DNA of 64,000 nucleotides from an uncultured Clostridia bacterium (GCA_937957765.1 CALFXG010000043.1:30213-94212); one strand, 5' to 3'; positions 2,202-64,000 are shown, numbered from the stretch's first letter. Notes: generated by a model not told the origin, from the letters alone. Program-made: numbers and translations.

Positions 2202-2205
2202 AAGC

Positions 2206-20506: not shown

Positions 20507-20755
20507 TTACTCTTTGAAGAGGTATTCCCGCACCAGCGCCTGCATCAGCTCGTCCCGGTCGATCTTACAGATCATGCTCCGGGCGCTGCCGTAGTTGGTG
20601 ATGTAGGTGGGGTCCTCGGTGAGCAGATAGCCGACGATCTGATTGATGGGGTTGTAGCCTTTTTCGTTCAGGGCGTCGAACACACTTCGGAGTATATGAC
20701 GCATGGTCTCCTTGTCATCGGGAACCTTAAAGGTCTGGGTTTCCATTCCCGTCAT
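20507..20755 (-). CDS. ireB: UPF0297/IreB-family regulatory phosphoprotein
   Basis: 82 aa; hallmark GYNPINQIVGYLLTEDPTYI. Confidence 0.8.
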   Translation of the reverse strand: MTGMETQTFKVPDDKETMRHILRSVFDALNEKGYNPINQIVGYLLTEDPTYITNYGSARSMICKIDRDELMQALVREYLFKE

Positions 20756-20848
20756 GGTCTCAGCCTCCTTTTGTTGATATTTTAGCCTATTATACCCTAA
20801 ACCGGCAATTCTGTAAAGAGCTGCCTATGAATATTTTGTGAATTCCGC

Positions 20849-48042: not shown

Positions 48043-48118
48043 GGGAGCATAGCTCAGCTGGGAGAGCACATGCCTTACAAGCATGGGGTCACAGGTTCGA
48101 GCCCTGTTGTTCCCACCA
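48043..48118 (+). tRNA. tRNA-Val (anticodon TAC)
   Basis: Cloverleaf; anticodon loop ccTTACAag; encoded CCA. Confidence 0.85.
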
Positions 48119-48125
48119 TTTATTT

Positions 48126-48202
48126 GGCCCGGTGGTGCAGTCGGTTAGCACGCCAGCCTGTCACGCTGGAGGTCGACGGTTCGAGTCCGTTCCGGGTCGC
48201 CA
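48126..48202 (+). tRNA. tRNA-Asp (anticodon GTC)
   Basis: Acceptor stem GGCCCGG/CCGGGTC; anticodon loop cctGTCacg; encoded CCA. Confidence 0.85.
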
Positions 48203-48250
48203 TTTTTGATATCTTTTGCATCCGAGTGGAGTGCAAATTCCGCTCGATAT

Positions 48251-48326
<76 letters not shown>

Positions 48327-48329
48327 GAT

Positions 48330-48405
48330 GCGGGTGTAGCTCATCTGGTAGAGCGCCACCTTGCCAAGGTGGAGGTAGCGAGTTCGAGCCTCGTCGCCCG
48401 CTCCA
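48330..48405 (+). tRNA. tRNA-Gly (anticodon GCC)
   Basis: Acceptor GCGGGTG/CGCCCGC; anticodon loop cttGCCaag; CCA. Confidence 0.85.
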
Positions 48406-48407
48406 AA

Positions 48408-48442
48408 AAAAGATAAGGAACGCGGAGCGTTCCTTATTTCAT
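48408..48442 (+). terminator. hairpin after tRNA-Gly
   Basis: aaggaacgc-ggag-gcgttcctt followed by a T-rich tract. Confidence 0.5.
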
Positions 48443-48444
48443 AT

Positions 48445-48519
48445 GGTACCGTGGCCAAGTGGTAAGGCAAAGGTCTGCAAAACCTTCATTCGCCAGTTCA
48501 AATCTGGCCGGTACCTCCA
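48445..48519 (+). tRNA. tRNA-Cys (anticodon GCA)
   Basis: Acceptor GGTACCG/CGGTACC; anticodon loop tctGCAaaa; CCA. Confidence 0.85.
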
Positions 48520-48536
48520 TGTTTATTCAACACTTT

Positions 48537-48578
48537 AGATGCAACTTGAAATAAGTTGCATCTAAAGCGCTTTTTAGG
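48537..48578 (+). terminator. terminator of tRNA operon
   Basis: tagatgcaactt-gaaat-aagttgcatcta hairpin followed by T-rich sequence. Confidence 0.6.
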
Positions 48579-48715
48579 ATAATTTCAAGAGAAATCAACT
48601 GAGATTAGTTTTGAAATCAAAGGTAAAATGTGAACACGATTTTTTTCAGTTTCATAGATGCAAACATGCTGTGGTGCATCTTTTGAACTGTATCAGCCAT
48701 ATGCAGTCAGAGATT

Positions 48716-48975
48716 GAGCAGCGCCCTTTCTGATTTCGGAGGAAATTTGAAAAAAGGGCGCTGCTTTTTTATAGAGTTTTCAGAAATTTATCATTTGGAA
48801 ACCTGCCGTGATTTTTGTGGTGTGAAGTCATAAGAATCCCGGCTTTTTTCATTTTCAAAAAGGGCGCTGGCTTCCAGCTCCTGATTATCAGTCGTTCTTC
48901 CTTAAGCGGGAAGGGCGGCTTTTTTCGTTTTCGGAGTAAATTACCTGCGTCTGAAAAAAGGGCGCCGGAGAATAT
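48716..48975 (+). repeat. three copies of a degenerate ~55-bp hairpin-forming repeat (xxGGCGCCCTTTTT...tttcggag.aaatt...AAAAAGGGCGCxx)
   Basis: Copy 1 at 48717-48768 (13-bp perfect stem agcagcgcccttt/aaagggcgctgct); copy 2 at 48840-48876 (internally deleted); copy 3 at 48912-48968. Confidence 0.5.
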
Positions 48976-48986
48976 GGAGGTTAAAA

Positions 48987-49202
48987 GTGAAAAATCAAAT
49001 GAGTTCCAAACCTATGAGAACCGTCCCGGAATACCGTGACCACACCGGCCCTCCCGGTTTTGCAGAGAAACCCATCTGTAGGGCATCCCCACTGTGCGAG
49101 GGGTGCCCTTTTCCCAGCCATGGATTTTTGTGCCAGGGCGGTGACGGGGAATGTATGCGCACGCGATTGATGAAATTATCTGAAAAGGAGAAAACGAAAT
49201 GA
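48987..49202 (+). CDS. small cysteine-rich protein (71 aa), hypothetical; translationally coupled to DUF4314 gene
   Basis: GTG start 7 nt after ggagg; CRASPLCEGCPF...C...C motif; its stop overlaps the next ATG (ATGA). Confidence 0.4.
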   Translation: MKNQMSSKPMRTVPEYRDHTGPPGFAEKPICRASPLCEGCPFPSHGFLCQGGDGECMRTRLMKLSEKEKTK

Positions 49203-49474
49203 ATATGCCATTTCCCAGCCGTGAGCAGGTGGAGTTTATTCGAAAGAACTATCCATCCGGCACACGTGTTATGCTGAACAACATGAATGATCCATATTCC
49301 CCAGTGGAATCTGGAACCCGTGGTACTGTGCGGTACGTGGACGATTGCGGTCAGCTCGGCGTTGTCTGGGACAATGGGCGCAGCCTGTCGCTGGTTCCCG
49401 GCGTGGACAGCTATCGCAGGCTGACCCAGCAGGAGATCGCCCAGGAACAGGGGATGGAGGAGATGAAGCTGTGA
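49199..49474 (+). CDS. DUF4314-family protein (conjugative-element associated)
   Basis: 91 aa; FPSREQVEFIRKNYPSGTRV...DPYSPV...GTRGTV matches the DUF4314 pattern typical of Clostridiales ICEs. Confidence 0.55.
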   Translation: MNMPFPSREQVEFIRKNYPSGTRVMLNNMNDPYSPVESGTRGTVRYVDDCGQLGVVWDNGRSLSLVPGVDSYRRLTQQEIAQEQGMEEMKL

Positions 49475-50049
49475 GTATACGGCTGATTTCAACGGAGCAG
49501 CTTCGCCGTATGGGAGGTCAGGAGGGACTTGTCCTTCAAGGCTGCGGCGGCGACCCACAGGAGTGGCTGGATGGCATCAATGAGATTCTTGCCCAGGAGT
49601 GCATTCTCAAAAAGGGCGCTAGCTTCGAAGAAGCCTATACCTTCCGGCATGACGGGCTGACCTGTATGCTGTTCCCCTTCAAAGAGGATACTGAACTGGA
49701 TGTGGGAAAGCTTGCCGCATGGCGGCTGGCATCCTATTCCACCTTCGGCGGAACATGGTTGTCTGACTATGTACCGAACCGACTGGGCGGTTTTATTCAG
49801 GAGCAGAAAACCGCTCCCGAGCGCATCAAGCCAGACTGCCCGCTCATAGGTGAGGACGGGAACATATTCCGTATTATGGGAATTGCCTCAGAGACACTCC
49901 GGGAGAATGGAATGCAGGAACAGGCTGAGGAAATGCGCAGCAGAATTTTTCAATGCCAGAGCTATGATTCCACCCTGAGCATTATTGGGGATTATGTGAA
50001 TATCACAGCCAAAGAGCAGGCTGAAGAACTGTCCATGGAAATGAATTAA
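49471..50049 (+). CDS. hypothetical protein (193 aa), GTG start overlapping upstream stop (GTGA)
   Basis: In-frame GTG at 49471 with ggagga 9 nt upstream; the track ORF 49345..50049 with an earlier start overlaps the DUF4314 gene and was not used. Confidence 0.45.
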   Translation: MSIRLISTEQLRRMGGQEGLVLQGCGGDPQEWLDGINEILAQECILKKGASFEEAYTFRHDGLTCMLFPFKEDTELDVGKLAAWRLASYSTFGGTWLSDYVPNRLGGFIQEQKTAPERIKPDCPLIGEDGNIFRIMGIASETLRENGMQEQAEEMRSRIFQCQSYDSTLSIIGDYVNITAKEQAEELSMEMN

Positions 50050-50107
50050 GGCCGTTATGGAATCCGAGAGGAAACCATAACGGCTTTTTTGCGTTCTGCG
50101 GAAGATC

Positions 50108-50419
50108 TCAGTCCCACATGTGCCTTCTCAGGTAGGATTCCGTATCATAGTCATATCGGAAGCGAACTCCGGGGATTGACTCGCCGCGGAGAATGGCAGT
50201 GTATGCCTTTTGGTGGATTTCATTAAGCTCCCGGTCACCGACAAAAAGGTTGTCAGAGATCATCAGGGCAAAGGCAGCGTCCGGGTATTTGGCTTCCAGT
50301 TCGGGAATGCTTTCAGGCGCGGCATGGCGCAGGGCGCTGATGCCGGGAATGCGGCGGAAAAATGCTTCCTGTCGCTGCAGAAGCTCCTGCATTGTGTGAG
50401 AAATGGCTGTAGTACCCAT
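50108..50419 (-). CDS. hypothetical protein (103 aa), only minus-strand gene in the ICE segment
   Basis: Clean ORF; minus-strand ATG preceded by gagag; no family recognised. Confidence 0.4.
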   Translation of the reverse strand: MGTTAISHTMQELLQRQEAFFRRIPGISALRHAAPESIPELEAKYPDAAFALMISDNLFVGDRELNEIHQKAYTAILRGESIPGVRFRYDYDTESYLRRHMWD

Positions 50420-50746
50420 CGTAAGTCTCTCCTTTTGCTGTGCGCACTGGTTGAGATGATACCATGAAATAAGTGAAAGGACAAGACTTGACTTTTCCTA
50501 AAACCGTGCTATCAAAGTTCGATGCTTCAAAACCATGAAGGGGGTGATGAATCTGAAAGACCGACGCAAATTGAAGGACAGGTGCCCTGAATACAGGAAG
50601 AAAACCAAACCCAACGGCCGATACAGCAGCTTGACCGCAGGCACTGTACCGGCCGTTTCTATTATGAATGGAGCGTGAGATAACCTATCAGAACACCTAT
50701 AACCCGCATTGGAAATAAGACAAACCTGCTGCCGATCATCCTGTCC

Positions 50747-51679
50747 GTGTTCCCCAGGGAATTCGGACGCTATATTGAAATCTTCGGCGGCAGCGGGGCT
50801 GTGCTGCTGGGGAAGGAACCCAGCAAATTTGAGGTTTACAACGACATTGAGGGGGAACTGGTGAATTTCTTCCGGATAGTGAAGAACCGTCCGGCAGAGC
50901 TGCTATTGGAGTTGGATCTGCTGCCCCTGAATTCAAGGGAGGAGTTTGCCAGCTGGCTCCACTTCCACGACGGCGGAAATGAACCCAACATCCATTTGCC
51001 GGATCAGCTGGAGATCATCGACAGAACGACACCAGCCTCTCTGACGGAAGAAGCAGAGAAGCTGAAAACATCCCTCCGGAAGCGCTCGGACTATCGGGAT
51101 GTCCGGCAGGCGGCTGCTTACCTGATGCGTGTGCGCAACAGCTACTCCAGCTCCGGACGGAGCTTCGCCTGTCAGCCATTCAGCGTGCGCACCCTGTTTA
51201 CGCAGATTTGGGAAATGTCCCGGCGGTTGGAAAACGTCATTATCGAGCAGCAGAGCTTTGAGGTGCTTATCCCTCACTACGACCGGGAGGACAGTTTCTT
51301 CTACGGCGACCCGCCATATTATGACAGCGAATATGTCTATGACGCGGAGTTTGGCTGGGATCACCATGTGCTGCTCCGGGACACGCTGGCAAAATGCAAG
51401 GGCAAGTGGCTGGTTTCCCAGGTGGACTGCCAGGAAATCCGGTATCTGTTCAGGGACTATCAGATCCTGGACTTCAAGCGTATTCACCCCATGGTGCAGA
51501 AGTACGCCCCCGGCAAGCAGTTTGGGGAGCTGCTCATCGGAAACTACGATCTTCTGGAACGGGAGCGGGAGGTTCCCCTACAGATGTCCCTGAATGAACT
51601 GCTGGGAGAGACCATCCCGGTAGAACAAATTTTGAAGGAGCGAATTATACCATGCAAAAACCGAACAACGAATTTGTAG
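50747..51679 (+). CDS. D12-class N6-adenine DNA methyltransferase (Dam-like), 5' end anomalous
   Basis: Motifs GNKTNLLPII (from 50711), FGGSGAV, DPPYY. The conserved N-terminal motif lies upstream of the only in-frame start (GTG 50747), and an in-frame TAA at 50681 leaves no ATG/GTG/TTG before it. Confidence 0.6.
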   Translation: MFPREFGRYIEIFGGSGAVLLGKEPSKFEVYNDIEGELVNFFRIVKNRPAELLLELDLLPLNSREEFASWLHFHDGGNEPNIHLPDQLEIIDRTTPASLTEEAEKLKTSLRKRSDYRDVRQAAAYLMRVRNSYSSSGRSFACQPFSVRTLFTQIWEMSRRLENVIIEQQSFEVLIPHYDREDSFFYGDPPYYDSEYVYDAEFGWDHHVLLRDTLAKCKGKWLVSQVDCQEIRYLFRDYQILDFKRIHPMVQKYAPGKQFGELLIGNYDLLEREREVPLQMSLNELLGETIPVEQILKERIIPCKNRTTNL

Positions 51680-51858
51680 AAACCGTCCTTATGGCCATTC
51701 CGGCGGACATGCTGGAGGAAGTGGGGATTGGACCCTGTTCCACTGTCCAGATGCATGTATCCCGGGGACGTATCATCATTCAGGCAGTGGACGAAGAGGC
51801 ATGCGGCGGCAGCCGGTACTGTCCCTGTGACTGCTGCTGTGAGGGGTGCCGGGAATGA
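51652..51858 (+). CDS. AbrB/MazE/SpoVT-type swapped-hairpin domain protein with C-terminal Cys cluster
   Basis: VETVLMAIPADMLEEVGIGPCSTVQMHVSRGRIIIQAV then CGGSRYCPCDCCCEGC; overlaps the Dam 3' end. Confidence 0.5.
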   Translation: MQKPNNEFVETVLMAIPADMLEEVGIGPCSTVQMHVSRGRIIIQAVDEEACGGSRYCPCDCCCEGCRE

Positions 51859-52154
51859 AAATTTTCCGGATCATCGGCAGGGAAGGCAGGATCACCATTC
51901 CCTGGGCAATCCGGCAGAAGGTTGGCTTTCGGCCGGATGATGTGGTGTCCTTCCAGCTCGTGGAGGATGACAGTGTGCTGGTGCGGCGGGAGAGTACCTG
52001 CGGGAAAGAGAAGAACCCCGGCGCTGGACGGGATGCTGCCATTACGGCATTTCTGGACAGTCTGGATGAAAAGCAGCGTTACAGCGCGCTGGTGCATCTT
52101 TCCGTCCTCTGGGCGCAGAGCCATGATAACCCTAAGAGGGGGGAGATTGAATGA
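51855..52154 (+). CDS. AbrB/MazE/SpoVT-type DNA-binding protein
   Basis: MKIFRIIGREGRITIPWAIRQKVGFRPDDVVSFQLVED; ATGA overlap with the upstream gene. Confidence 0.55.
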   Translation: MKIFRIIGREGRITIPWAIRQKVGFRPDDVVSFQLVEDDSVLVRRESTCGKEKNPGAGRDAAITAFLDSLDEKQRYSALVHLSVLWAQSHDNPKRGEIE

Positions 52155-52516
52155 ACCAATATCGGGTCGTGTATGTGGAGCCGGGAAAGCCTGCTGTGGA
52201 GAAGAAGATCGGCACGAAGCTGGAAGACCTGCAGGCGGAAGTTGGCGGGCTGATCGAATGCATTTATTGCCACCGTGACGGAACCCTCATTGTAGCAAAC
52301 GATGAAGCTAAGCTGCTGGGTATGGAGGGCAACCGCCGGTTGGACGGCGGTTCCGTCATTGCGGGGCCATTTTTCGTCATTGGCGACGCGGGGGAGAACT
52401 TCCGCTCGCTGACAGATGCGGAGGTCAATCGGTATCTGCAAGTGTACGCGGAACCTCAGCAGATTTCTCAGCGGGAAGTTCGGGCGGACATGGGTATGAC
52501 ATTCTACTGTTTTTGA
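52151..52516 (+). CDS. DUF3846-like protein (ICE-associated)
   Basis: 121 aa; N-terminus YRVVYVEPGKPAVEKKIGTKLEDLQAEVGGLIE resembles DUF3846 proteins of Firmicutes conjugative elements. Confidence 0.4.
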   Translation: MNQYRVVYVEPGKPAVEKKIGTKLEDLQAEVGGLIECIYCHRDGTLIVANDEAKLLGMEGNRRLDGGSVIAGPFFVIGDAGENFRSLTDAEVNRYLQVYAEPQQISQREVRADMGMTFYCF

Positions 52517-52524
52517 GGTGCGAC

Positions 52525-52953
52525 ATGAAGATCAAAGCAAAAATCGACCGGATGGTGAATTCCGGCAATGTGAAGGCGATTGCCTCCGTCTCCCTGGATG
52601 GGATGTTTGTGGTCAAGAACCTGAAAATCATGGACGGAAAGAAGGGCCTGTTTGTCTCCATGCCCCAGGAAACTTATTCCGGGAAGGACGGGCAGAAGAA
52701 GTACAGCAATCTGTTTTTCGCCCTGACCAACTCGGCGAAGCTGGAGCTGCAGGAGACGGTTCTGCAGGCATACCAGCAGCAGATCGACCCCAACTACACA
52801 CCAAAGCGGAGCTATGAGGAACGGGGAATTTTACAGGAAGTCCAGCACCAGCGGGAGTATTACCCGCAGCCTCCGTATCCCGAACCTCAGTACCCGGACT
52901 GGGTGAATGATTGTGACAACGGGATGCTTCCCATGGAGATGGGTGGAATGTAG
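52525..52953 (+). CDS. SpoVG-family protein (mobile-element paralogue)
   Basis: VKAIASVSLDGMFVVKNLKIMDGKKGLFVSMPQ matches the SpoVG core; Q/P/Y-rich C-terminal extension. Confidence 0.55.
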   Translation: MKIKAKIDRMVNSGNVKAIASVSLDGMFVVKNLKIMDGKKGLFVSMPQETYSGKDGQKKYSNLFFALTNSAKLELQETVLQAYQQQIDPNYTPKRSYEERGILQEVQHQREYYPQPPYPEPQYPDWVNDCDNGMLPMEMGGM

Positions 52954-53015
52954 CCAGACGTTGGTAACTTGCCTCTGCGAAAGCAGGGGCTATTTTTTAT
53001 GGAAAGGAAGACCCA

Positions 53016-55229
53016 ATGATAGTAGACCTGAAACGCTGTCTCTCAATTCTCCTCGCAGTGATGCTTCTCGTCGGCATCATCCCTACTGCCTACGCTGTGG
53101 AATCGGGCGCAGATAGTACCCAGCCCGAGAAGACAGTCTCCGAGGGGACACAACCAACCGATAGTATTGACCCCACAGAACCCACGGAGCCGACAGAACC
53201 GCCGGATATTCCGGATACGCAGGACGATTATGCGGTAATGTCTGTCGGCAGTACCCAGAAAAGCATCCTGCTGTTTGACTACGCGGACAATGGCAACTAT
53301 ACGACCGTCCTGAAGTCGCAGGTTTCCTGCGAGTACAAACCCAATGGCACCGGCGCTGCCCGGACAGCCTATATCAAAAACCTGGGCTGGCATTTCGCTC
53401 GGTATGGCGGTGTTGCCTATCCGGACGAACCGCTGTACTGCATTGAACCATGGCGCAGCTACGGCGCCAGTACCTCCGGAAACTCCGTTGACCGGGGTGT
53501 GACTCTGGACGGCAGCGGCAGTACCGCGGGCAGCAATGTGTGGTACGCCATGCCGGAAGATTACCGGGAGGCCATTGGCCTGATTCTCCTGTACAGTGAC
53601 CAGATGTGGGATCACTCCGTCAGCGTGACCACCACGAAAAAGGACAGCAACCCCAATGTCCCCCTGCGGATCGCCACCCAGTTCCTTATTTACGAGATCG
53701 TCTGCGGTCTGCGTGACCCTGCCACATTCAAAAGCAATTCCGTGAATTCGTGCGGCACCTCGGGCGATATATTTTACAATGCGGGGGAAGCCAGCGTGCC
53801 GTATTTTGCGCCCAAGTATAACGCTCTGGTAGACGCGATTCATGCGGCGAAGAAGATACCCAGCTTTACCGGCGCCTCCGTCAGCAGCGCCCCCACCATT
53901 ACCCTGACAGGGGAGGAAACCTCGGTGACGGACAGCAACGGCGTCTTGTTCAACTTTTCCTTTACGGATGGGAATGGCGCGAAATTTTACAAGAGCGGGA
54001 ATACGCTGTATATCACCCAAACCGGGGATATCTCCGAGTCCACGGTATACAAGGCAGCCCAGAATCTGCCCTCCGCGTCAGACTCCACATACCGAATCTG
54101 GTATATGTCCGGCTCCAGCTACCAGACAACGGTATCTCTGGACACTGCATCCGCGGGGAGTCTCAATGCCTACTTTAAGCTGAAGGCCGCTCCACGGCCG
54201 GGAAGCATCAGCCTGACCAAAACCACCGAGGATGGGAAGAACCTCTCCGGATGGAAATTCGGTATCTATTCGGATGCCGCCTGTACGAAACTGGTATCCG
54301 GCCCTCATACCACCGATAGCGGCGGCAAGATTTCCGCTGCCGGTCTGTCGGCAGGGACTTACTACGTCAAGGAGCTGGGACATACGGACAGCACCGTCGG
54401 TGAGATGTATTACTGTTCCGGTGCAAATCCGCAGAAGGTGACGGTAACGGCTGGCGCGGCGGCGACAGTCAGCTTTACAAACAAACGGAATACCGGCGGC
54501 GTAAAGATCATAAAGACTATGCCGGACGGCGGCAGCACCGCTGGCTGGAAGTTTGAAGTCTATGACAGCAATCATAAGCTGGTGGGGAGTTATACCACCG
54601 CATCTGACGGAACCATTCTGACGGATTACCTCCTCCCCGGAACCTACACAGTCAAGGAGATCATCCCGGAGGACAGCCCCTACACCTGTGACGCGCCCAA
54701 TCCCCAAACCGTAACGATCTCGGCAGGCCAGACGGCGGAGGTGACCTTCACCAATCGCATGAAGCCCGGAGAGATCCGGATTCAGAAGACGGATACCCAC
54801 GGCGAGCCGCTTGCCGGGGCAGAGTTTCTGCTGGAATGGTCAAAGGACGGCCGGCAGTGGCAGACGGTGACCTATACGGATTCTCCGGATGTCACGGAGG
54901 GAACCTGCACTGCGGAAGGACTTACGGACGGAAAGCTCACCAGCGGAGCGGACGGTGAGGTGCGGTTCACCGGCTTGTACTCCGGCAGCCTCTACCGTGT
55001 GACGGAAGTCAAGGCACCGAAGGGGTATCAGCTCCTGACGGAACCTGTCTATGAGGGGAGCATCCGGAAGGATGACGGAAATTTTACCCGGCTGACCGTG
55101 GTGAATGCTCCCGTATTTGAGCTGCCCATGACCGGCTCTACAGGCTATACCGCCATGACTGCCATACAGGTCGGAACCGGCATCGTTCTGCTGTTCATAC
55201 TGATCCGGCTGGCAAAGGAGCGGAAATAG
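53016..55229 (+). CDS. LPxTG-anchored pilus tip adhesin-like protein with Cna-B/SpaA-type isopeptide domains
   Basis: Signal peptide; repeated prealbumin-like domains (GSISLTKTTEDGKNLSGWKF...YYVKE); C-terminal LPMTG, TM helix and basic tail. Confidence 0.65.
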   Translation: MIVDLKRCLSILLAVMLLVGIIPTAYAVESGADSTQPEKTVSEGTQPTDSIDPTEPTEPTEPPDIPDTQDDYAVMSVGSTQKSILLFDYADNGNYTTVLKSQVSCEYKPNGTGAARTAYIKNLGWHFARYGGVAYPDEPLYCIEPWRSYGASTSGNSVDRGVTLDGSGSTAGSNVWYAMPEDYREAIGLILLYSDQMWDHSVSVTTTKKDSNPNVPLRIATQFLIYEIVCGLRDPATFKSNSVNSCGTSGDIFYNAGEASVPYFAPKYNALVDAIHAAKKIPSFTGASVSSAPTITLTGEETSVTDSNGVLFNFSFTDGNGAKFYKSGNTLYITQTGDISESTVYKAAQNLPSASDSTYRIWYMSGSSYQTTVSLDTASAGSLNAYFKLKAAPRPGSISLTKTTEDGKNLSGWKFGIYSDAACTKLVSGPHTTDSGGKISAAGLSAGTYYVKELGHTDSTVGEMYYCSGANPQKVTVTAGAAATVSFTNKRNTGGVKIIKTMPDGGSTAGWKFEVYDSNHKLVGSYTTASDGTILTDYLLPGTYTVKEIIPEDSPYTCDAPNPQTVTISAGQTAEVTFTNRMKPGEIRIQKTDTHGEPLAGAEFLLEWSKDGRQWQTVTYTDSPDVTEGTCTAEGLTDGKLTSGADGEVRFTGLYSGSLYRVTEVKAPKGYQLLTEPVYEGSIRKDDGNFTRLTVVNAPVFELPMTGSTGYTAMTAIQVGTGIVLLFILIRLAKERK

Positions 55230-55323
55230 CTCCATGAATCCGCCCTACAGAGCAAGGGACAGGCCGCTGCCTGTGGATATGCCATGGCAAAAATTTACTT
55301 ATATTATGAAAGGAAATGCTTCT

Positions 55324-57196
55324 TATGAAAAAGTTTACCAAAATGATCGCCCTGATTCTCTCCCTGACGCTGCTACTCTGCTTCCCCATCGGCGTTTCAG
55401 CCGCTGAGACGGAAGATACCGGCGCCGATACCGCCGCCAAAGGCTCCCTGACCATCTACAAGGTAGATCTGACCAACGCCGAGAAGGACGGCGCGTGGGA
55501 TTCCAGCTACGTGTCTACCGGCGTCTATGACCAGAACGTGAATGATACCCTCAACAGCTATGCCCTGAAGGATGTGGAGTTTACCTATCTTCGGGTCGCG
55601 GATGTTGTTCAGCTTACGGGGCCTGTGGCGGACGGCGGGGACCCTGACCATGTGGAAACCCTCTACGGCATCAGCAAGACTGCGGGGGTAGACCTCCTGA
55701 ACGCCCTGGGGCTGGGAAACGGCGCTAACCGTTATGAGAAGGCGGATGGTTCTGACCAGCTGGACGATTCCAAATACTACTACCAGTCCGATGTCCTTAT
55801 TTCTGCCCTGAGTACCGCGCTGAAAGCCAATGCCACCACTGTGAAGAACGCTCTGGAAGCCTACGTCACTGAGAGCGGCACTGCCATGCCCCTGACAGAT
55901 ACTTACGGCAAGACCAGAGCTGAAGATCTGGAGCTGGGACTGTATCTTGTGGTGGAAACCAGAGTGCCGGAAATGGTTACCAGTACCTGCAATCCCTTCT
56001 TCATCTGCCTGCCCATGACGTCCAGCGGCGGCAGCTGGATTTATGATGTGACTGTGTACCCCAAGAATCTGACCGGTAATCCGACGCTGGACAAGACCCT
56101 GCGGGAGAGCAAAGACGATACCGGCAAGCATAACGGCACCAACGACATCACCGACGGCTATGCCCACACCGGTACGGCCTCTGACGGCGATGTGGTGGAT
56201 TACCAGATCGTCAGCACCCTGCCCAGCATCACCTCCGCATCTACCTATCTGACCTGCTACACTTTCGCCGATACCCTGAGCAGGGGCATCACCTACAACA
56301 AACACGATGTGGTGCTGGAATTCTTTACGGATGCGGCCTGCACCGATCCCGTTGCCAGATGGGCGGAAACGGACGGAAAGTTCACCGTCACCTACAGTAC
56401 CACGGATACCGGCGAGTCCGGAATGACCATTGAGATGACAGCGGACGGCCTGAAGGAAATGAACACGGCGGTGTATTCCGACGCATCCATGGTCAACTCC
56501 GGCTATTCGGATTGCACCCTGCGGATCACCTATGCCGCGACCGTGAACAGCAGCGCCGATGTGGTCTACGGCGACAACGGCAACCCCAACGAGGTGGTGC
56601 TGACTTGGAAACGCACCTCCCAGAATTCCTATGATACCCTGAAGGATGACGCCAGGGTCTTCACCTATGGTCTGGAACTGACGAAGCTGTTCTCCGACGG
56701 CAAGGGGGATTTCTCCAAGGTACAGTTCATCATGCAGAATAAGACTGACGGCTATTATGTGAAGGCCAGACTGGATGAAGCCACCGGCGTTTACTACGTC
56801 ACAGATCATGTCGCGGACAAGAAGGACGCTACCCGGCTTGTTCCGACTGTCAAAGATGGAAAAGGTAAGATTCTCATAAAGGGTTTGGAGGACGACGAAT
56901 ATACCGTCACCGAAATCAAGACGGCGGACGGCTATACCCTGTTGAAAAAGGGAATTTCTGTGGTAATTTCCCGGAAGGACGCATCCACCTCTGCCACCGT
57001 GGATGGGAAACAGGCCGCGATGCTGGCGGACAATGGAAGCGCCAATGCTCTTGTGCCTCTCAGCGTAGTGAACACCAGCGGCTTTGATCTCCCGGCCACC
57101 GGCGACCGGGGTGTGTGGATGTATGGTCTGGCCGGTATTCTGCTCATGACCGCCTCCGCTGCCTGCATCATCATTGCCCGGAAGAGATTCAAGTAA
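55324..57196 (+). CDS. LPxTG pilin backbone subunit (SpaA-like)
   Basis: Signal peptide; pilin-type isopeptide domains; C-terminal LPATG, TM helix and ARKRFK tail. Confidence 0.65.
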
Positions 57197-57253
57197 CCGG
57201 AAGAAATTCAAGTAAATTGTACCTGCCCCGGAAAACCCTTCCGGGGCAGTGTC

Positions 57254-58171
57254 ATGTCGGGGAGGAAGAACGTGAAGCGGGGATATTTGCAGATACTTCT
57301 GGCGGCTGTGCTGTTTCTGCTGGCATTGGGGCTGACGCTGTATCCCGTTGTCAGCAACTGGTATATCGGGCGGCACCAATCCCGGATACAGACCGAATAC
57401 CGGGAAGTGCTGGAACAGACAGACACCGCCAAGTTGGACAGCATCCGGGAAAAAGCAGTGGCGTACAACAGAACCATTACCCCCGGGGCTGCGGAGGAAG
57501 CCTACTCTCAGGCATCCATTCGTGCAGCATCTGAAGATTATGTTAACCAACTGAATGTAAGCGGAAGCGGAATAATGGGGTATGTGGAAATACCGAAAAT
57601 CGGCGTGGACCTTCCCATCTACCATGGAACAGGCGCGGATTCTCTGGACAGAGGAACGGGACACCTGCTGGGTTCCTCTTTGCCGGTGGGCGGAGAAAGT
57701 ACTCATACCATCATCACCGGCCACAGCGGCATGGCTTCCCAGAAGATGTTCACGGATCTGGAGCAGCTGCGGGAGGGGGATATTTTCTATCTGCATGTTC
57801 TGGATGAAACCCTTGCCTATGAGGTAAGGGAAATTCATACGGTTCTGCCCCATGATACCACCTATCTGGGAATTGAACCCGGTGAGGATTTGTGTACGCT
57901 GGTGACCTGTACGCCCACCGGCGTAAATACCCACCGCCTGCTGGTACAGGGAAGCCGCATCCCGTATGTCCCGGCGGATGAAACAGAGGCTTCTGCTGTT
58001 CCGCATGAGGAAAATACGGATTCCAACTGGGAGAAACAGTATTGGCTTGGTGTTCGTCTGGGGCTGGCGGCGATGGTTTTCCTGACGCTGGTGGTAGGCG
58101 CGGTGCTGTATATCCGGAGAAACAGAGGAAGGGCAGTCCATAGGAAAGGAGGGCGCTATGTCAGAAAGTAA
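57254..58171 (+). CDS. class C (pilus-specific) sortase
   Basis: TLVTCTP catalytic motif; N- and C-terminal TM helices; likely true start is GTG 57275 after gggaggaag. Confidence 0.75.
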   Translation: MSGRKNVKRGYLQILLAAVLFLLALGLTLYPVVSNWYIGRHQSRIQTEYREVLEQTDTAKLDSIREKAVAYNRTITPGAAEEAYSQASIRAASEDYVNQLNVSGSGIMGYVEIPKIGVDLPIYHGTGADSLDRGTGHLLGSSLPVGGESTHTIITGHSGMASQKMFTDLEQLREGDIFYLHVLDETLAYEVREIHTVLPHDTTYLGIEPGEDLCTLVTCTPTGVNTHRLLVQGSRIPYVPADETEASAVPHEENTDSNWEKQYWLGVRLGLAAMVFLTLVVGAVLYIRRNRGRAVHRKGGRYVRK

Positions 58172-58928
58172 GGGAAAAATCCCTTTTGTGATTTTGGCAG
58201 TTCTGCTTCTGCTGTTTGGCGGCGGGACGATGCTTTATCCAGCTCTCAACGGATTATGGGTTGAGCAAACCATGCACAGGGATTCAGAGGACTTCCTGCT
58301 TCTGCTGGAGGAAGCCGCGGAGAGAACAGCGGAGGAGAATTCCCATGTCATTCCGGAGGAGCCGGAGAGCGAGAAATCCAATGTGCCGGAACAGTACTCC
58401 CAACTCTGGCTGGATATGAAAGCCTACAACGAAGCCATCTTCCGGGAGGGGCAGAAAGGGCTGTCCGACCCTTCTGCTTATGAAGACGCCTGTTTCTGGC
58501 TTTCCGACTATGGTCTGGACAGCGAGGTGTTTGGCGTTCTCTCCATTCCAAAGCTGGATTTACAAATGCCAATCTATATGGGTGCTGCAAAAGAAAATAT
58601 GGCAGCCGGTGCGGCGGTCATGGGGCAGACCAGTCTGCCCATAGGCGGCAGCGATACCAACTGTGTCCTTGCCGGACATCGGGGATGGAACGGCGCGGCA
58701 TATTTTCTGTACATCAACCAGCTGGAACCGGGAGATACCGTCACCGTTACCAATCTCTGGGAAACCCTGAACTATCAGGTCAAGGAGACCAGGATCATTG
58801 ATCCCAATGATGTGGAAGCCATTCTCATCCAGCCGGGACATGAATTATTAACCCTGCTCACCTGCCATCCGCCTGCTTCCGGAGGAAAGCAGCGGTATCT
58901 GGTGTTTTGTGAAAGAACCTATCTGTAA
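58158..58928 (+). CDS. sortase family transpeptidase (second sortase of pilus operon)
   Basis: LLTLLTCHP active-site motif; N-terminal TM helix. Confidence 0.7.
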   Translation: MSESKGKIPFVILAVLLLLFGGGTMLYPALNGLWVEQTMHRDSEDFLLLLEEAAERTAEENSHVIPEEPESEKSNVPEQYSQLWLDMKAYNEAIFREGQKGLSDPSAYEDACFWLSDYGLDSEVFGVLSIPKLDLQMPIYMGAAKENMAAGAAVMGQTSLPIGGSDTNCVLAGHRGWNGAAYFLYINQLEPGDTVTVTNLWETLNYQVKETRIIDPNDVEAILIQPGHELLTLLTCHPPASGGKQRYLVFCERTYL

Positions 58929-59042
58929 ATTTATGACATAAGGGTCTTCGCGTCTGTTCGTTACCGAGCAGAAACCTTAAATACTGGTTTATGGTTGTAA
59001 CAAATTGGGGTGAAGCGCCCTGCGCTTCGAAATGGAGGTTTC

Positions 59043-59381
59043 ATGAAGAAGAAAAGAATTGTAAGACTGTTCGCTATGGCAGGCGTTATGATGCTGGTTG
59101 TGGCATTTATGGCGATGCCTGCCTATGCTGCCGGCGGCAATGTGTCCGGGGCCATCGAGGGCACATGGTCTGCTGCTCAGGGTCAGATCAAGGACATCGT
59201 CAACAATGTGGTGTTCCCGGTGATCGACATGATTCTGGCGGTTCTGCTGTTCGTCAAGATTGCAACAGCGTATATGGACTACCGGAAACACGGACAGTTT
59301 GAGTTTACAGCACCGGCGATTTTGTTTGCCTGTCTGCTGTTTTCCCTGACTGCCCCCAGCTACATCTGGAATATCCTGTAA
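59043..59381 (+). CDS. TrbC/VirB2-like small membrane protein of conjugative T4SS
   Basis: Signal peptide (AMPAYA) followed by two hydrophobic helices; start at MKKKRIV. Confidence 0.4.
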   Translation: MKKKRIVRLFAMAGVMMLVVAFMAMPAYAAGGNVSGAIEGTWSAAQGQIKDIVNNVVFPVIDMILAVLLFVKIATAYMDYRKHGQFEFTAPAILFACLLFSLTAPSYIWNIL

Positions 59382-59523
59382 GCTGTGGTTTTCGGTTTCG
59401 GAAAGGGGGTGGTGAACCATCTTTGATTGGTTAGGCGATATTCTGGCAGGTCTGGGAGATGCCCTGGGCGGTGCGTTCGGGAACATTGGTGAGGATATTG
59501 TAAACTCTGTCTGGAATGCCCTG

Positions 59524-60354
59524 GTGCAATGGCTGTACGAAGCCTTTTACTCCGCTATCGGGGAACTGTTCGCGGACATCAACGATCTTGGGGTGGAGAT
59601 ATTTGACCTGAGCTGGGTGCAGGCGGTGGTCAGCCTGTTTACTATGCTGGGGTGGTCGCTGTTTGTGGTTGGTGTGGTGGTGGCCGTCTTTGAGGTAGCC
59701 ATTGAGAGCCAGAGCGGCAGGGTCAACATCAAAGGGACGGCCCTGAATGTGCTGAAGGGCTTCTTTGGAGCCAGTCTGGTGGGCGCTCTTCCTGTGCAGC
59801 TGTATAAAACCTGTTGTACCTTGCAGGGGATATTCACTGCCGACCTGGCAGGAATTTATGCCGGTTCCCAGAGCAGCACCATTGGTGCCTTTGCGGGGCA
59901 GGTTCTCAGACTTGCGTTTGTTCCGTCGGAAGCGGTGGAGGTGGGGCTTAAGATTATCTTTTTCCTGCTGGCCTTTGCCTACTGCGTGATCAAGATATTC
60001 TTCGCCAACATCAAGCGGGGCGGCATTCTCCTGGTGCAGATTGCTGTTGGCAGCCTGTACCTGTTCAGTGTGCCGAGAGGATATACAGATGGATTTTACC
60101 AGTGGTGCAAGCAGGTCGCTGCCATCTGCCTGACTGCCTTTTTGCAGACCACATTGCTGTTCCTTGGGATGATGACATTCCAGAATAATATGCTGTTAGG
60201 CATCGGCATCATGCTGGCGGCAGGTGAGGTACCCCGGGTCGCACAGCAGTTCGGTTTGGACAGCTCCGTTAAAGTGAATATGAGCAGCGTGATTTACTCT
60301 ACCAACTCGGCGGTAAATCTGGCCCGGAACATCATGAAACCGGCAGCGGCGTAA
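59524..60354 (+). CDS. VirB6/TrbL-like polytopic membrane protein of conjugative T4SS (start uncertain)
   Basis: Five or more TM helices; the in-frame protein-like extension back to 59416 contains no ATG/GTG/TTG. Confidence 0.45.
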   Translation: MQWLYEAFYSAIGELFADINDLGVEIFDLSWVQAVVSLFTMLGWSLFVVGVVVAVFEVAIESQSGRVNIKGTALNVLKGFFGASLVGALPVQLYKTCCTLQGIFTADLAGIYAGSQSSTIGAFAGQVLRLAFVPSEAVEVGLKIIFFLLAFAYCVIKIFFANIKRGGILLVQIAVGSLYLFSVPRGYTDGFYQWCKQVAAICLTAFLQTTLLFLGMMTFQNNMLLGIGIMLAAGEVPRVAQQFGLDSSVKVNMSSVIYSTNSAVNLARNIMKPAAA

Positions 60355-60364
60355 GGAGGGCAGT

Positions 60365-60631
60365 ATGAAAACCTATCTGTACCCGCAGAACCTCAAGGCC
60401 AGAGCGAACCTGTGGCTTTGGAGCCTGCGGGATTTTGTAATTCTGTGCGCTGCCGTGCTGGTCAGCGCCGTGATTTTTCTGAACTCCGGCATTGCACTAC
60501 CCGCTGCCCTGGCGCTTTGCTTCGGTTTCCTGACCATCCGGAAGGACGATATCACGGTGGTGGACTTCCTGGGCTATGCCGTCCAGTTCTTTCTGACCAG
60601 CCAGCAATACTTTGAATGGAGGGAGCCATGA
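60365..60631 (+). CDS. PrgI/VirB3-like small membrane protein
   Basis: 88 aa with two TM helices, immediately upstream of VirB4, as in Gram-positive conjugation loci. Confidence 0.5.
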   Translation: MKTYLYPQNLKARANLWLWSLRDFVILCAAVLVSAVIFLNSGIALPAALALCFGFLTIRKDDITVVDFLGYAVQFFLTSQQYFEWREP

Positions 60632-61254
60632 AGAAAAAACAAGGGAATCAGAAGCGGGGATGCGGGGGCAAGAAAAATTCGGTACAGGAGCTTCTGAGTA
60701 TCCAGTATTTCACAAAATACGGCCTTATGACAGAGCATTGGGAGATGGTGTTCTTCCAGATTGCGCCCACCAATATTTCTGTGTTATCCTATGAAAATAT
60801 TGAACGGAAGATAAATCATTTGCAGGGGCTCATCTCCATGCACCCGGATATGGAAATCGTGTGTACGGATTCCTGCGAGTGCTTTGACGGCAACCGGGAG
60901 TACCTGCGCCGCCGGGCGTTGGAAGAATCCAACCGACAGGTCCGCTCCATTTTGGAGAAGGATCGGGAGATGCTCTCTCAGATGCAGTCGGAGATGTCCA
61001 ATGCCCGGCAGTTTTATCTTGTTATGCGGTTTAAAAACATGAAGCCCGATATGGTGTTCAGTGCCATCAATGAAGCCCGGAAGCGGATGTCGGAAAAAGG
61101 TTTTGAGACCCATCGACTCACCAGACCGGAGCTGAAGCGGTTCCTTGCTATCTATCTGGAGGCATCCATGGACGGGGATAAGCTGCCGGACATGGATGGG
61201 AGTCAATATATCCGGGAGGCGCTGAAAAAGGATGAGAAGAAGGGGAGTGCATAA
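60628..61254 (+). CDS. VirB4-family conjugal transfer ATPase, N-terminal segment (separate ORF)
   Basis: Resembles the N-terminus of Gram-positive VirB4 (PrgJ/TcpF/Orf16) proteins; ends TAA 61252-54, 1 nt into the next ATG. Confidence 0.5.
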   Translation: MKKKQGNQKRGCGGKKNSVQELLSIQYFTKYGLMTEHWEMVFFQIAPTNISVLSYENIERKINHLQGLISMHPDMEIVCTDSCECFDGNREYLRRRALEESNRQVRSILEKDREMLSQMQSEMSNARQFYLVMRFKNMKPDMVFSAINEARKRMSEKGFETHRLTRPELKRFLAIYLEASMDGDKLPDMDGSQYIREALKKDEKKGSA

Positions 61255-63089
61255 TGTTGGGTAAGCTGTTCGGAAAAAAGAAAAAGGTCGGGGAGGAGCG
61301 GGCAAGGATGGAAACCAAGTCCTTCTTTGACTGTATTGCCCCCGCAACCATCCGGTTTTATGCCAATTATTTCCTTGTAGGGGATACCTACCGCTGCGTC
61401 TGGGTCATCCGGGAGTACCCGCCAAGTACGGAGGAGCAGGCGATCCTCTCTCATCTGGCGGATCATTCCGGGGTGACCCTCAGAATATACAATCGTCTGG
61501 TGGAAGCCTACGAGCAGCGGCAGATTGCCAACAATGCTGCCCGGAAGAACCGCCTGAAGCTTGGGGATACGGACATCAACGAATCTATCCAGGCGGAACA
61601 GAACCTGCTGGATGTTCAGCAGCTTCTGGTGACTTTGAGCCGGGAGAAGCAGCCGCTGATCCACTGTGCTGTGTTTCTGGAGCTGAAGGCCAGAAGCATG
61701 AGTGCTTTGGAGAGCCTGCAGTCCGATATCAGCATGGAGCTGACCCGTTCCAAGATCACTGTAGATCGCCTGACTCTGCGGCAGAAAGAGGGCTTTCTCT
61801 CCGCCATGCCCTTTGGATGTAACCGTTTCGGAAGTCAGTTTGAACGGGTACTTCCGGCCAGCGCCACTGGGAATATGTTTCCGTTCAACTTCTCCGGAAA
61901 GACAGACCCCAAGGGCTTCTATATCGGTCGGGATAAGTACGGTACCAATATTCTGGTAGATCTGGATCGCCGGGCCGACGACAAAACCAACAGCAACATC
62001 CTGATCCTGGGCAACTCCGGTCAGGGAAAATCCTACCTGATGAAGCTGCTGCTGACCAATCTCCGCGAGGCAGGAAAGCGGGTGCTGGTTCTGGATGCCG
62101 AGGGAGAATACGGAGAACTGGCGGAAAACAACGGCGGCTGCTGCCTGGATCTTCTGGACGGGCAGTACATGATCAATATTCTGGAACCAAAGGTCTGGGC
62201 AAGCGAGCCGGTGGAGGATCCGGATGCCCCCGAAGCCTTCCGCAAAAGCGGCAGAATAGGGCAGCATATCGCATTCCTGAAAGACTGGTTCCGCAGCTAC
62301 AAGGACTTTACGGATGCTGAGGTGGACACCATTGAGATCATGCTGTCCCAGCTTTACCGGGAATTTGGCCTGACAGAAAAGACGGACTTTTCCAAGCTGA
62401 AGCCGGAGAATTACCCCATTTTGTCCGACCTGTATAAGCTGTGCTTACAGGAATATTACTGCTATGACAAGAAAAACAAGCTCCTCTATACCGAGGAGAC
62501 TCTGCGCAATATCTGTCTGGGGCTGAACTCCGTTTGTGTTGGTTCTGAAAGCCGGTTTTTCAATGGGCATACCAATATCCAGGATAATATGTTCCTGGTG
62601 TTTGGGGTAAAGGGCGTTATGGATCTGAACAAGAAGCTCCGCTGTGCCATTGAGTTCAATATTCTGTCCTACATGACCCACCAGCTTCTCAGTGTTGGAA
62701 ACTGTGTGGCTGCCTTGGACGAACTGTACCTGTTCCTGGACAGCCCGGTGACTATCGAGTACATCCGCAACAACATGAAACGTGTCCGGAAGAAGGAGTC
62801 GGCCATGGTTCTGGCTTCCCAGAATATTGAGGACTTTCTGCTTCCCAACATCCGGGAGATGACCAAGCCCCTGTTTTCCATTCCTACCCACCAATTCCTG
62901 TTCAATCCGGGACAGATAAATCCCAAAGACTACATGGATGCCCTGCAGGTGGAGCCGTCAGAGTATGATCTGATCCACGGCTGTGAGCGGGGGCATAACC
63001 TGTACCGGTGCGGCAATGAACGATATCTTCTGCAGGTTATCGCCCCGGAGCATAAGGCCGCGCTGTTCGGCACAGCGGGAGGACGGTAA
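61254..63089 (+). CDS. VirB4-family conjugal transfer ATPase (main body with Walker A/B)
   Basis: Walker A ILILGNSGQGKS, Walker B VLVLDAEGE; Walker A lies ~255 aa from the ORF start, versus ~440 in intact VirB4. Confidence 0.75.
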   Translation: MLGKLFGKKKKVGEERARMETKSFFDCIAPATIRFYANYFLVGDTYRCVWVIREYPPSTEEQAILSHLADHSGVTLRIYNRLVEAYEQRQIANNAARKNRLKLGDTDINESIQAEQNLLDVQQLLVTLSREKQPLIHCAVFLELKARSMSALESLQSDISMELTRSKITVDRLTLRQKEGFLSAMPFGCNRFGSQFERVLPASATGNMFPFNFSGKTDPKGFYIGRDKYGTNILVDLDRRADDKTNSNILILGNSGQGKSYLMKLLLTNLREAGKRVLVLDAEGEYGELAENNGGCCLDLLDGQYMINILEPKVWASEPVEDPDAPEAFRKSGRIGQHIAFLKDWFRSYKDFTDAEVDTIEIMLSQLYREFGLTEKTDFSKLKPENYPILSDLYKLCLQEYYCYDKKNKLLYTEETLRNICLGLNSVCVGSESRFFNGHTNIQDNMFLVFGVKGVMDLNKKLRCAIEFNILSYMTHQLLSVGNCVAALDELYLFLDSPVTIEYIRNNMKRVRKKESAMVLASQNIEDFLLPNIREMTKPLFSIPTHQFLFNPGQINPKDYMDALQVEPSEYDLIHGCERGHNLYRCGNERYLLQVIAPEHKAALFGTAGGR

Positions 63090-64000
63090 ATGGGAATCAC
63101 GGTAGGCGCGGCGCTGAAAAAGGCAGCGATTGCAATCCTTGGCAACCCGAAAGCTCTGAAAAAGCTGCTGTTCGCGGTTCTGGTGGTCTTCGTGGCTCTG
63201 CTCCTGCCGATGGTCATGGTGGTTTGCCTGTTCAGCGGCAGTTTTCAGGTGGACAGTGGGGAATTGCTGCGGTATGTGGAAGCCAACCTGACAGAATCGG
63301 ATGTGCAGCTGCTGCAGAGCGTGGAAACTACCATGACGGAGATTGAAAACGCCATGATCGAGGCAGAGCTGAGCGCTGATGTGGGAGCAGCCCAGGCGCT
63401 GTATATTATGGCGCTGTATGATTTTGCCAGCCAGCCTGGATTCGTGTCCAGGCTGGTTTCCTGCTTTGAGGCGGAACAGACAGATGCCCAGCTCATTGCC
63501 AATGTCAACGCGGCATTTGGCACAGAGATCCCGGTTCAGGAGTTTACTGACGTAATGCGTAATGTTCGCTCCCGGAGAATTGATACTGCCCGGTATGTGG
63601 ACTGCGGCACCAAGAACAATCTGGATCTGGTGCAGTGGGCGATCTCTGCCTGTAACTCCGGATGGGGCTATGTCATGGGTACTTTCGGGCAGGTGCTGAC
63701 TGTCGACCTGCTGGAAGCAAAGCTGGCCCAGCTTCCGGATGCCATAGGTCCCTATGAGGATTACATAAGAGCGAATTATCTTGGGGTCCGGACGGCAGAC
63801 TGTATTGGGCTGATCAAGGGCTACAGTTGGTACGACCCCGAAACAGGAAATATCAACTACAAAAGCAATGGAATGCCGGATGTCGGTGCTGACCAGATCT
63901 ATAACCAGGCCACGGAAAGAGGAAGTATGGCTGCTATGCCGGAGATTCCGGGACTGATTCTCCATGCCAGCGGCCATGTGGGTATCTACATTGGAAACGG
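63090..64000 (+). CDS. membrane-anchored cell-wall hydrolase (CHAP or NlpC/P60-like), partial at window end
   Basis: ATG overlaps the VirB4 stop (TAAATG); N-terminal TM helix; Cys...His pattern (ADCIGLIKGY...HVGIYIG). Confidence 0.45.
   Translation, partial: MGITVGAALKKAAIAILGNPKALKKLLFAVLVVFVALLLPMVMVVCLFSGSFQVDSGELLRYVEANLTESDVQLLQSVETTMTEIENAMIEAELSADVGAAQALYIMALYDFASQPGFVSRLVSCFEAEQTDAQLIANVNAAFGTEIPVQEFTDVMRNVRSRRIDTARYVDCGTKNNLDLVQWAISACNSGWGYVMGTFGQVLTVDLLEAKLAQLPDAIGPYEDYIRANYLGVRTADCIGLIKGYSWYDPETGNINYKSNGMPDVGADQIYNQATERGSMAAMPEIPGLILHASGHVGIYIGN

Follow-up and report, generated by a model that had tools for sequence, protein, structure and literature searches.

Introduction

How Gram-positive donor cells find and hold their recipients during conjugation is poorly understood, and monomeric LPxTG adhesins are the factors named in current reviews (PMC12857230, PMC8092201). 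LPxTG adhesins of Enterococcus faecalis pCF10 are co-transcribed with the type IV secretion system (T4SS) genes and mediate mating-pair formation (PMC12857230), the thioester adhesin TIE-pLS20 (gene 34) of Bacillus subtilis pLS20 is required for efficient conjugation (PMC8092201), and over-expression of the sortase pilus of Lactococcus lactis pSH74 increased conjugation efficiency (PMC5152845). Gut megaplasmids with sortases and giant surface proteins have been described as well (2026 preprint, PMC12934698). Both LPxTG adhesins on conjugative elements and plasmid-borne pilus clusters are already known, and Gram-positive conjugation systems are stated to make or encode no pili (PMC8092201, PMC12857230). 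Here, we describe a 64,000-nt stretch of DNA from an uncultured Clostridia bacterium (GCA_937957765.1, CALFXG010000043.1:30213-94212; hereafter the window), which holds, at positions 48520-64000, the left 15.5 kb of an integrated conjugative element of at least 44 kb from human-gut Oscillospiraceae, with a sortase-pilus operon placed at the head of its T4SS genes. Our reading, to which we give a probability of roughly 0.55, is that pilus and transfer genes are expressed together and that a covalent fibre, its tip capturing recipients, serves in mating-pair formation. In the literature, which was incompletely covered, we found no account of a Gram-positive T4SS module that has a class C sortase pilus operon among its conserved parts. 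An operon fixed in this position would offer a specific and testable candidate for the mating fibre of Gram-positive donors and, if the conjugative-pilus reading is true, would contradict the current statement that Gram-positive T4SSs encode no pili.

The closest described systems each share part of this arrangement. Like pCF10 with its PrgA/PrgB/PrgC (PMC12857230), the element encodes sortase-dependent surface proteins upstream of T4SS genes, and its T4SS has VirB6-, VirB4- and hydrolase-like components and a weakly PrgI-like one; PrgB, however, is a monomeric polymer-adhesin-domain protein that relies on the host's housekeeping sortase, and pCF10 has neither a pilin nor class C sortases of its own. 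The likeness to pLS20 lies in a Gram-positive T4SS, a MobL-family relaxase and, among the conjugation genes, an adhesin with CnaB-type stalk domains and a thioester domain (a candidate one in the present element), which in pLS20 promotes mating, especially in liquid (PMC8092201). Yet TIE-pLS20 is a single protein without LPXTG on a plasmid without a sortase, whereas the present element is chromosomally integrated and encodes an LPMTG protein, a pilin of the polymerising kind and two class C sortases, with a thioester domain that scores just at threshold. Lactococcal pSH74 (spaCB-spaA-srtC1-srtC2; PMC5152845) likewise encodes, on a mobile replicon, a tip protein, a backbone pilin and then two class C sortases, but its pilus cluster belongs to no T4SS operon and helped conjugation machinery encoded on the sex factor, and the likeness noted is one of gene order.

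For the transfer genes, the nearest relatives in PLSDB are Clostridium estertheticum pCF016-18 and a plasmid of Oscillospiraceae bacterium MB08-C2-2, which have in common with the element the series DUF3852, TrbL, small membrane protein, VirB4 (DUF87), hydrolase and, further along, DUF6103; the MB08-C2-2 plasmid also shares DUF3991-Toprim, a MobP3 relaxase, a type IV coupling protein (T4CP) and a helix-turn-helix (HTH) protein. Unlike the element, both plasmids are autonomous, have a fused VirB4 (45% identity for pCF016-18, 28% for MB08-C2-2) and are without sortase or pilin genes. For the pilus genes, the resemblance is to the Corynebacterium SpaA-type and Clostridium perfringens CppA pili, with D1/CnaB domains, YPKN, E-box, LPXTG, class C sortases and the tip gene first, but those are chromosomal colonisation or virulence loci with no T4SS link, and the locus described here is without a basal pilin gene.

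Pilus operon and secretion genes

The window was compared with related loci and contigs (L001 and so on) from a public assembly collection. Pfam calls were judged against curated cut-offs and lie above them unless given as sub-threshold, and all features named below are on the + strand of the window. A terminator-like hairpin (52971-52990), the last such site ahead of the pilus genes to have 6 or more GC pairs, parts the leading genes of the element from the pilus/T4SS block. Next comes the gene for a candidate tip adhesin of 737 aa (53016-55229) with a signal peptide, three SpaA/CnaB domains, LPMTG (aa 703), a transmembrane segment and a basic tail, followed by that for a major (backbone) pilin of 626 aa (55316-57196) with GramPos_pilinD1, pilinBB and SpaA domains, VYPKN (aa 248), an E-box-like YTVTEIKTADGY and LPATG (aa 592). 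The pilin matches the NCBIfam SpaH/EbpB major pilin model (140 bits against a cut-off of 95) as well as an isopeptide-forming domain, and its closest solved relatives are the C. perfringens major pilin (5xcc/6ixy) and the corynebacterial Spa pilins. Two class C sortase genes complete the set: sortase 1 (57254-58171; TLVTC) scores 260 bits and sortase 2 (58158-58928; TLLTC) 164 bits against an NCBIfam class_C_sortase cut-off of 160, and the two genes overlap by 14 nt. By its sequence, this is a bona fide pilus locus; the LPMTG tip adhesin, LPATG pilin and two sortases had been named in a first-pass annotation made from the sequence alone, and their motifs and their scores above the class C and SpaH/EbpB cut-offs bear it out.

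The tip protein is polymorphic in length among elements, at 734-737 aa or, with one extra SpaA/CnaB repeat, 827-830 aa (L001, L003, L163, L164 and others). A sharp identity break falls at window position 54505 between elements that are otherwise 95-99% identical.

Immediately downstream stand the T4SS genes, as had been claimed. They encode a DUF3852 small membrane protein (59043-59381; 165 bits), a TrbL_5/VirB6-like channel protein (59524-60354; 380 bits), an 88-aa membrane protein with weak PrgI/VirB3 likeness and a conserved position (60365-60631), a 212-aa protein (p212; 60616-61254), a VirB4-type conjugation ATPase recognised by Pfam and NCBIfam (61254-63089) and the N-terminal part of a cell-wall hydrolase, cut by the window end (63090-64000; 345 aa in relatives). 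The p212 protein aligns to residues 29-133 of the fused 788-aa VirB4 of the Oscillospiraceae plasmid and is the split-off N-terminal domain of VirB4. Three earlier assignments hold in part: the TrbC and PrgI similarities are present but sub-threshold (23 bits against 27.9 for the DUF3852 protein and 17.2 against 27 for the 88-aa protein), and the partial hydrolase reading frame itself has no match, although its complete orthologue (L001:11837-12874) has a weak NlpC/P60 match (24.2 bits against 23). Of the components expected of a Gram-positive (MPF-FA-like) T4SS, no VirB8-like protein was recognised in the element by Pfam/NCBIfam annotation.

Four T4SS lineages retain the gene series tip, pilin, sortase, sortase, DUF3852, TrbL_5, small membrane protein, VirB4; their VirB4 proteins are 100% (the window type), 78% (L162), 74% (L161, L179, L180) and about 66% (L164, L165, L169) identical to that of the window. 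The last of these lineages is a mosaic, with pilus genes 87-94% identical but TrbL, PrgI-like, p212 and VirB4 only 52-67% identical and a recombination breakpoint near DUF3852, so the modules have recombined and the arrangement has nevertheless been retained. From 52990 to 64000, no terminator-like site exceeds 4 GC pairs, and the sortase 2 and DUF3852 genes overlap by 4 nt in several relatives.

Movement between genomes

The host is a member of Faecousia (Oscillospiraceae), an uncultured human-gut genus, and the region is a horizontally mobile conjugative element that is inserted precisely 3' of tRNA-Cys and moves between species. Window and L011, which come from different Faecousia species, differ by 1 mismatch in 10,955 nt (48520-59474; 99.99% identity), against only ~74-75% identity of the L011 host flank to the window over 7.4 kb. 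At least nine Faecousia genomes have empty sites (L030, L055, L057, L065-L069, L077), in which the five tRNAs of the operon are directly followed by native terminators without element genes; the first-pass annotation had called for a comparison with strains lacking the insertion, and these genomes, of other species, supply one. Insertion is also seen at a second site, where the element follows tRNA-Thr(GGT), itself downstream of rplQ (L163, L169; in rearranged form in L119). The tRNA-Cys and tRNA-Thr(GGT) genes have a common T-arm TCGCCAGTTCAAATCTGGC (19 nt) and their own acceptor strands, and the element begins at the identical nucleotide after both. Partial copies of the tRNA-Cys 3' end lie at internal junctions of tandem elements (L052; L167, L170, L172). 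The same junction at two tRNAs and the partial tRNA 3' copies are hallmarks of site-specific integration at a tRNA 3' end. Together, gene content, cross-species identity, empty sites and second site support what had been proposed, a conjugative element at the end of the tRNA operon that combines a Gram-positive T4SS with a sortase pilus.

The family is abundant and variable. The collection lists proteins identical to the window's VirB4 in 496 blocks and to its DUF3846 protein in 1402; scored VirB4 homologues number over 8000, and internal-deletion variants are frequent (L006, L097, L115, L119, L128, L131, L167). Public contigs that carry the element include ERZ28750354 contig_1852 (254 kb, tRNA-Thr site), ERZ24879769 contig_1234_polypolish (1.44 Mb), GCA_046989345.1 JBKWUG010000003.1 and GCA_964261755.1 CAXVQW010012014.1. 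The element is extremely common in human gut metagenomes, and its relatives spread cargo for carbohydrate utilisation, sulfatases and defence among the species of an abundant uncultured genus, which makes it relevant to gene flow in the gut microbiome.

Three arrangements were noted around the tRNA-Cys copies. The first is a 3.1-kb unit (L052:11786-14731) of a 401-aa tyrosine integrase and two unknown genes, which lies between tRNA-Cys and a partial tRNA-Cys copy and is followed, after that copy, by a related conjugative element. This integrase was considered as the element's own and rejected. Neither the window nor any other locus has it, and its homologues are found in unrelated elements, which in L174 is a phage-like contig and in L176/L177 a metabolic island headed by the homologue; the L052 integrase belongs to an unrelated tandem element at tRNA-Cys. 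The second is a 14-kb internal-deletion derivative (L167:5228-19245, likewise L170 and L172) that runs from DUF4314 to DUF3846, is fused to defence-like genes (C5 DNA methylase, YpsA, DUF1016, AAA_13, DUF2971) and terminates at a degenerate tRNA-Cys copy (AGATCAAAAGTGGACGGTACGTCCA), after which the left end of a second element follows; this derivative has no recombinase. The third is an empty site with a 19-nt partial copy of the tRNA-Cys 3' end (L067:11670-11694), 125 nt past tRNA-Cys and before the native terminator, likely an excision or decay scar.

Genes beyond the window

The downstream part of the element was read from ten contigs (L001-L010) that are 92-99% identical to the window. Past position 64000 come, in turn, the 345-aa hydrolase, DUF6329, DUF6103, an Amidoligase_2/GGACT pair, small unknown proteins, relaxase, HTH_26, DUF3991-Toprim, coupling protein and HTH_36. 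The relaxase has 875 aa and belongs to Pfam MobL and NCBIfam MobP3 (372 bits against 150), and the coupling protein is a VirD4-type T4CP of 609 aa (T4SS-DNA_transf/TraG-D_C); that both would lie downstream had been predicted from the window, and the near-identical copies (96-98%) supply them. The Amidoligase_2 and GGACT (gamma-glutamyl cyclotransferase-like) pair is conserved within the transfer region, past the T4SS genes and ahead of the relaxase (L001:14331-15787).

The backbone, of ~26 kb, ends at the stop codon of the 101-aa HTH_36 protein. Sequence past that point is wholly different among copies and is exchangeable, low-GC cargo of at least 17.5 kb. Examples include a 2-keto-3-deoxygluconate (KDG)/uronate-type operon with sulfatases, GH127 and ATP-binding cassette (ABC) permeases at a GC content of ~0.46, a LacI-ABC-GH13-GH31 operon and, in L102, a defence-like block of low GC content; L109 and L111 have genes for surface proteins 2100-2400 aa long. 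The part of L167 that ends at the degenerate tRNA-Cys copy overlaps L113 by 300 nt, and this overlap suggests it as the right end of the full-length element. An excised circle would join the right end, ...TCCA and TGTTTATTCAACAC.

One contig departs from this layout: past T4CP, HTH_36 and LacI/ABC/glycoside hydrolase (GH) cargo, it carries a fragment of the D12 methylase region (L120:20612-21538, corresponding to window 50684-51237, 94% identical) and a relaxase fragment, and looks as if rearranged or circularly permuted.

Role of the pilus and means of integration

From the position and operon-like structure of the pilus genes, we infer that the tip adhesin, pilin and two class C sortases would be transcribed together with the T4SS genes and that their products would build a covalently polymerised, cell-wall-linked fibre. 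Its tip, possibly a thioester adhesin, would capture recipient cells, and the fibre would thereby take on the part in mating-pair formation that other Gram-positive systems give to PrgB-type LPxTG adhesins or to the TIE adhesin of pLS20. Conserved synteny and operon structure strengthen the mating-adhesin role that the first-pass annotation had raised as a possibility, though it is still deduced from gene arrangement. Integration at tRNA 3' ends would be the work of a site-specific recombinase, encoded in the unsampled right part or acting in trans. A broader proposal, which we put forward tentatively and at somewhat less than even odds, is that this element family recruited a sortase-polymerised pilus, possibly thioester-tipped, as a dedicated Gram-positive conjugative pilus and, in addition, may integrate 3' of tRNAs without an integrase of its own, by way of either a trans-acting integrase or its own relaxase.

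Several observations weigh against a mating fibre on an autonomous element, and part of them favour another function for the pilus. The plasmids with the same T4SS/MobP3 backbone, transfer-competent by gene content, have neither sortase nor pilin, so the machine itself has no need of a pilus, and one deletion variant (L006) is without the tip and pilin genes and still has the sortases and T4SS. No basal pilin or housekeeping sortase was found in the locus, which holds two LPXTG substrates and two class C sortases only; a host sortase elsewhere is possible. The thioester domain in the tip adhesin is proposed tentatively, because the N-terminal Pfam thioester (TED) match lies at threshold (22.1 against 22 bits) and is joined by the motifs YCIEP (aa 141) and ATQF (aa 220), and a PDB profile search with the tip matched the Bacillus anthracis TIE adhesin (BaTIE, 6FWV) only via its CnaB part. 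The two motifs recur as YCIDP and ATQI in a homologue of only 29% identity (L162). For the tip N-domain, a single-sequence AlphaFold prediction was too poor to use (predicted local distance difference test, pLDDT, 33). This N-domain is the fastest-evolving part, with 23% identity in L162 against 78% for VirB4, which fits host-surface adhesion equally with recipient recognition. As to autonomy, Pfam and integrase hidden Markov model (HMM)/resolvase searches found no tyrosine, serine or DDE recombinase in the ~26-kb backbone, 17.5 kb of cargo or putative right-end segment, contrary to the earlier expectation of one downstream. Extension toward the other boundary, which had also been advised, gave only further cargo: the right end of a full-length copy was not reached from T4CP loci or by an IclR-based step, and scans of viral contigs gave nothing. 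Of the attachment-site (att) duplication that was to be looked for, the left end and the partial tRNA-Cys copies at tandem junctions are thus in hand but not the right end of the full-length copy. No circular form was found either. Since integrase, right end and circular form were all not found, autonomy as an integrative and conjugative element (ICE) is not established; the element's recombinase may be encoded in the unsampled part or supplied in trans.

The same fast divergence of the tip N-domain and the same pilus-free plasmids would be expected if the pilus were niche-adaptive cargo, a gut-colonisation or biofilm adhesin for mucus, host matrix or other microbes that is not involved in DNA transfer. 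Host adhesion is the classic function of SpaA/CnaB pili and thioester adhesins (PMC8092201), and the element bears other niche cargo in its sugar and sulfatase/GH operons. That cargo, however, sits past HTH_36 and is freely exchanged, whereas the pilus has a fixed place in the backbone, heads the T4SS genes without an intervening terminator and is retained in four T4SS lineages despite the T4SS swap. We regard the adhesin-as-cargo explanation as the main rival, possible but less likely than a role in mating.

The element might instead be a decaying, non-self-transmissible remnant, or one wholly dependent on helpers, that without a recombinase of its own persists as a genomic island. The recombinase searches and the frequent internal-deletion variants are as such a history would leave them, but the backbone reading frames in the window are all intact, and near-perfect cross-species identity between ~75% flanks, the same precise junction at two tRNAs and the abundance of the exact VirB4 argue for recent, repeated, site-specific movement, so that we think decay or full helper dependence improbable. 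Entry of a conjugative plasmid into the chromosome by homologous recombination or flank co-transfer, rather than by site-specific integration, is very improbable: the T4SS/MobP3 backbone does occur on true plasmids and the methylase fragment past the cargo in L120 is as in circular permutation, but the backbone showed no genes for replication or partition, the two tRNAs, with only a 19-nt T-arm in common, have the junction at the same nucleotide, and partial tRNA 3'-end copies mark the tandem junctions.

Left boundary and leading genes

The first base of the element is at 48520 (TGTTTATTCAAC...), immediately 3' of the CCA of tRNA-Cys(GCA) (48445-48519), the last gene of the native operon, whose 3' end is the attachment point. 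Every element-bearing locus reads tRNA-Cys CCA and then TGTTTATTCAACACTTTAGATGC..., including a perfect 15-bp hairpin with a T-run (48533-48567) that is in all element copies; in L027 the hairpin has diverged, with changes on both arms that preserve the stem. This hairpin is absent from the empty sites, which have their own, mutually different terminators. Presence in all element loci and absence at empty sites make the hairpin element DNA and place the start at 48520, so the first-pass annotation, which took it for the tRNA-Cys terminator and began the element at 48580, set the boundary 60 nt too far to the right. The hairpin is likely a terminator that shields the element from tRNA read-through and may also be a recombination or transfer site; a search elsewhere in the element for a second copy, as a possible origin of transfer (oriT) or att site, found none.

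A BLAST block that starts at 48304, together with a degenerate tRNA-Phe 3' copy in L006 and L011, had pointed to a boundary in tRNA-Phe, with tRNA-Gly and tRNA-Cys borne by the element. This boundary was ruled out: the five-tRNA operon is native to the genus, the degenerate copy also occurs in element-free genomes, and eight of the nine mismatches between window and L011 fall in 48304-48425. Host-type differences thus run through tRNA-Gly and the Gly-Cys spacer to 48425, which places the boundary at tRNA-Cys. The degenerate second tRNA-Phe 3' end (e.g. TTCGATTCCGACGGTCGGCACCA) lies between tRNA-Phe and tRNA-Gly in many Faecousia, element or not (L006:2833-2884, L011:9080-9131, also L017, L025, L049, L076, L085), and is not in the window at 48327-48329; it is probably the scar of another, tRNA-Phe-targeting element.

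The left end continues as a non-coding leader of 680 nt. Within it, at 48637-48967, are three repeats of ~100 nt (families D1-D3, inverted repeats I4/I5), each with a hairpin and GAAAAAAGGGCGC, the motif reading GAAAAAAGGGCGC(T/C)G; terminators, single-strand promoters or protein-binding sites are possible roles. The leading genes follow: a DUF4314 protein (49199-49474; 99.8 bits), a 192-aa protein of no family that always adjoins it (49471-50049), an orphan D12-class N6-adenine DNA methyltransferase with no adjacent nuclease gene (50747-51679; 69.4 bits), a MazE/AbrB-type small DNA-binding protein of the SpoVT fold (51846-52154; 28.9 bits), a DUF3846 protein (52151-52516; 88 bits) and a SpoVG-family protein (52525-52953; 79 bits). 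The DUF4314, DUF3846, SpoVG, orphan Dam and AbrB-like calls of the first-pass annotation, like its VirB6-like and VirB4 calls, were reproduced above the Pfam cut-offs.

Host and genomic context

Genes for tRNA-Val, Asp, Phe, Gly and Cys, the operon already named in the earlier annotation, lie at 48043-48519 on the + strand by ARAGORN and Rfam alike, and Rfam detected nothing beyond these five tRNAs in the window. The GC shift and strand bias reported after the operon also agree with calculation: GC content is 0.615 for 1-48042 and 0.536 for 48520-64000 (Mann-Whitney p = 2.5e-7, 1-kb windows), and from 49199 onward the credible genes are all on the + strand. Relatives of the flanking Hsp33 are found in Faecousia metagenome-assembled genomes at no more than 88% aa identity. 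The native Faecousia order is dcw cluster, FtsZ, methyltransferase, Hsp33 and tRNA-Val-Asp-Phe-Gly-Cys, and the tRNA operon is present with or without the element.

Two Faecousia genomes have a second tRNA-Phe-Gly set ~3 kb past the first operon (L025:4866-7699, L049:2820-5580), with CcdA-like and thioredoxin-like genes of host-like appearance between the two sets. A small insertion was considered for this second set and rejected because the intervening genes resemble host genes; the set is probably native. The host part of the window itself has low-GC patches at ~2000-4000 and ~20000-21000, with a GC content of 0.45-0.52 against ~0.61.

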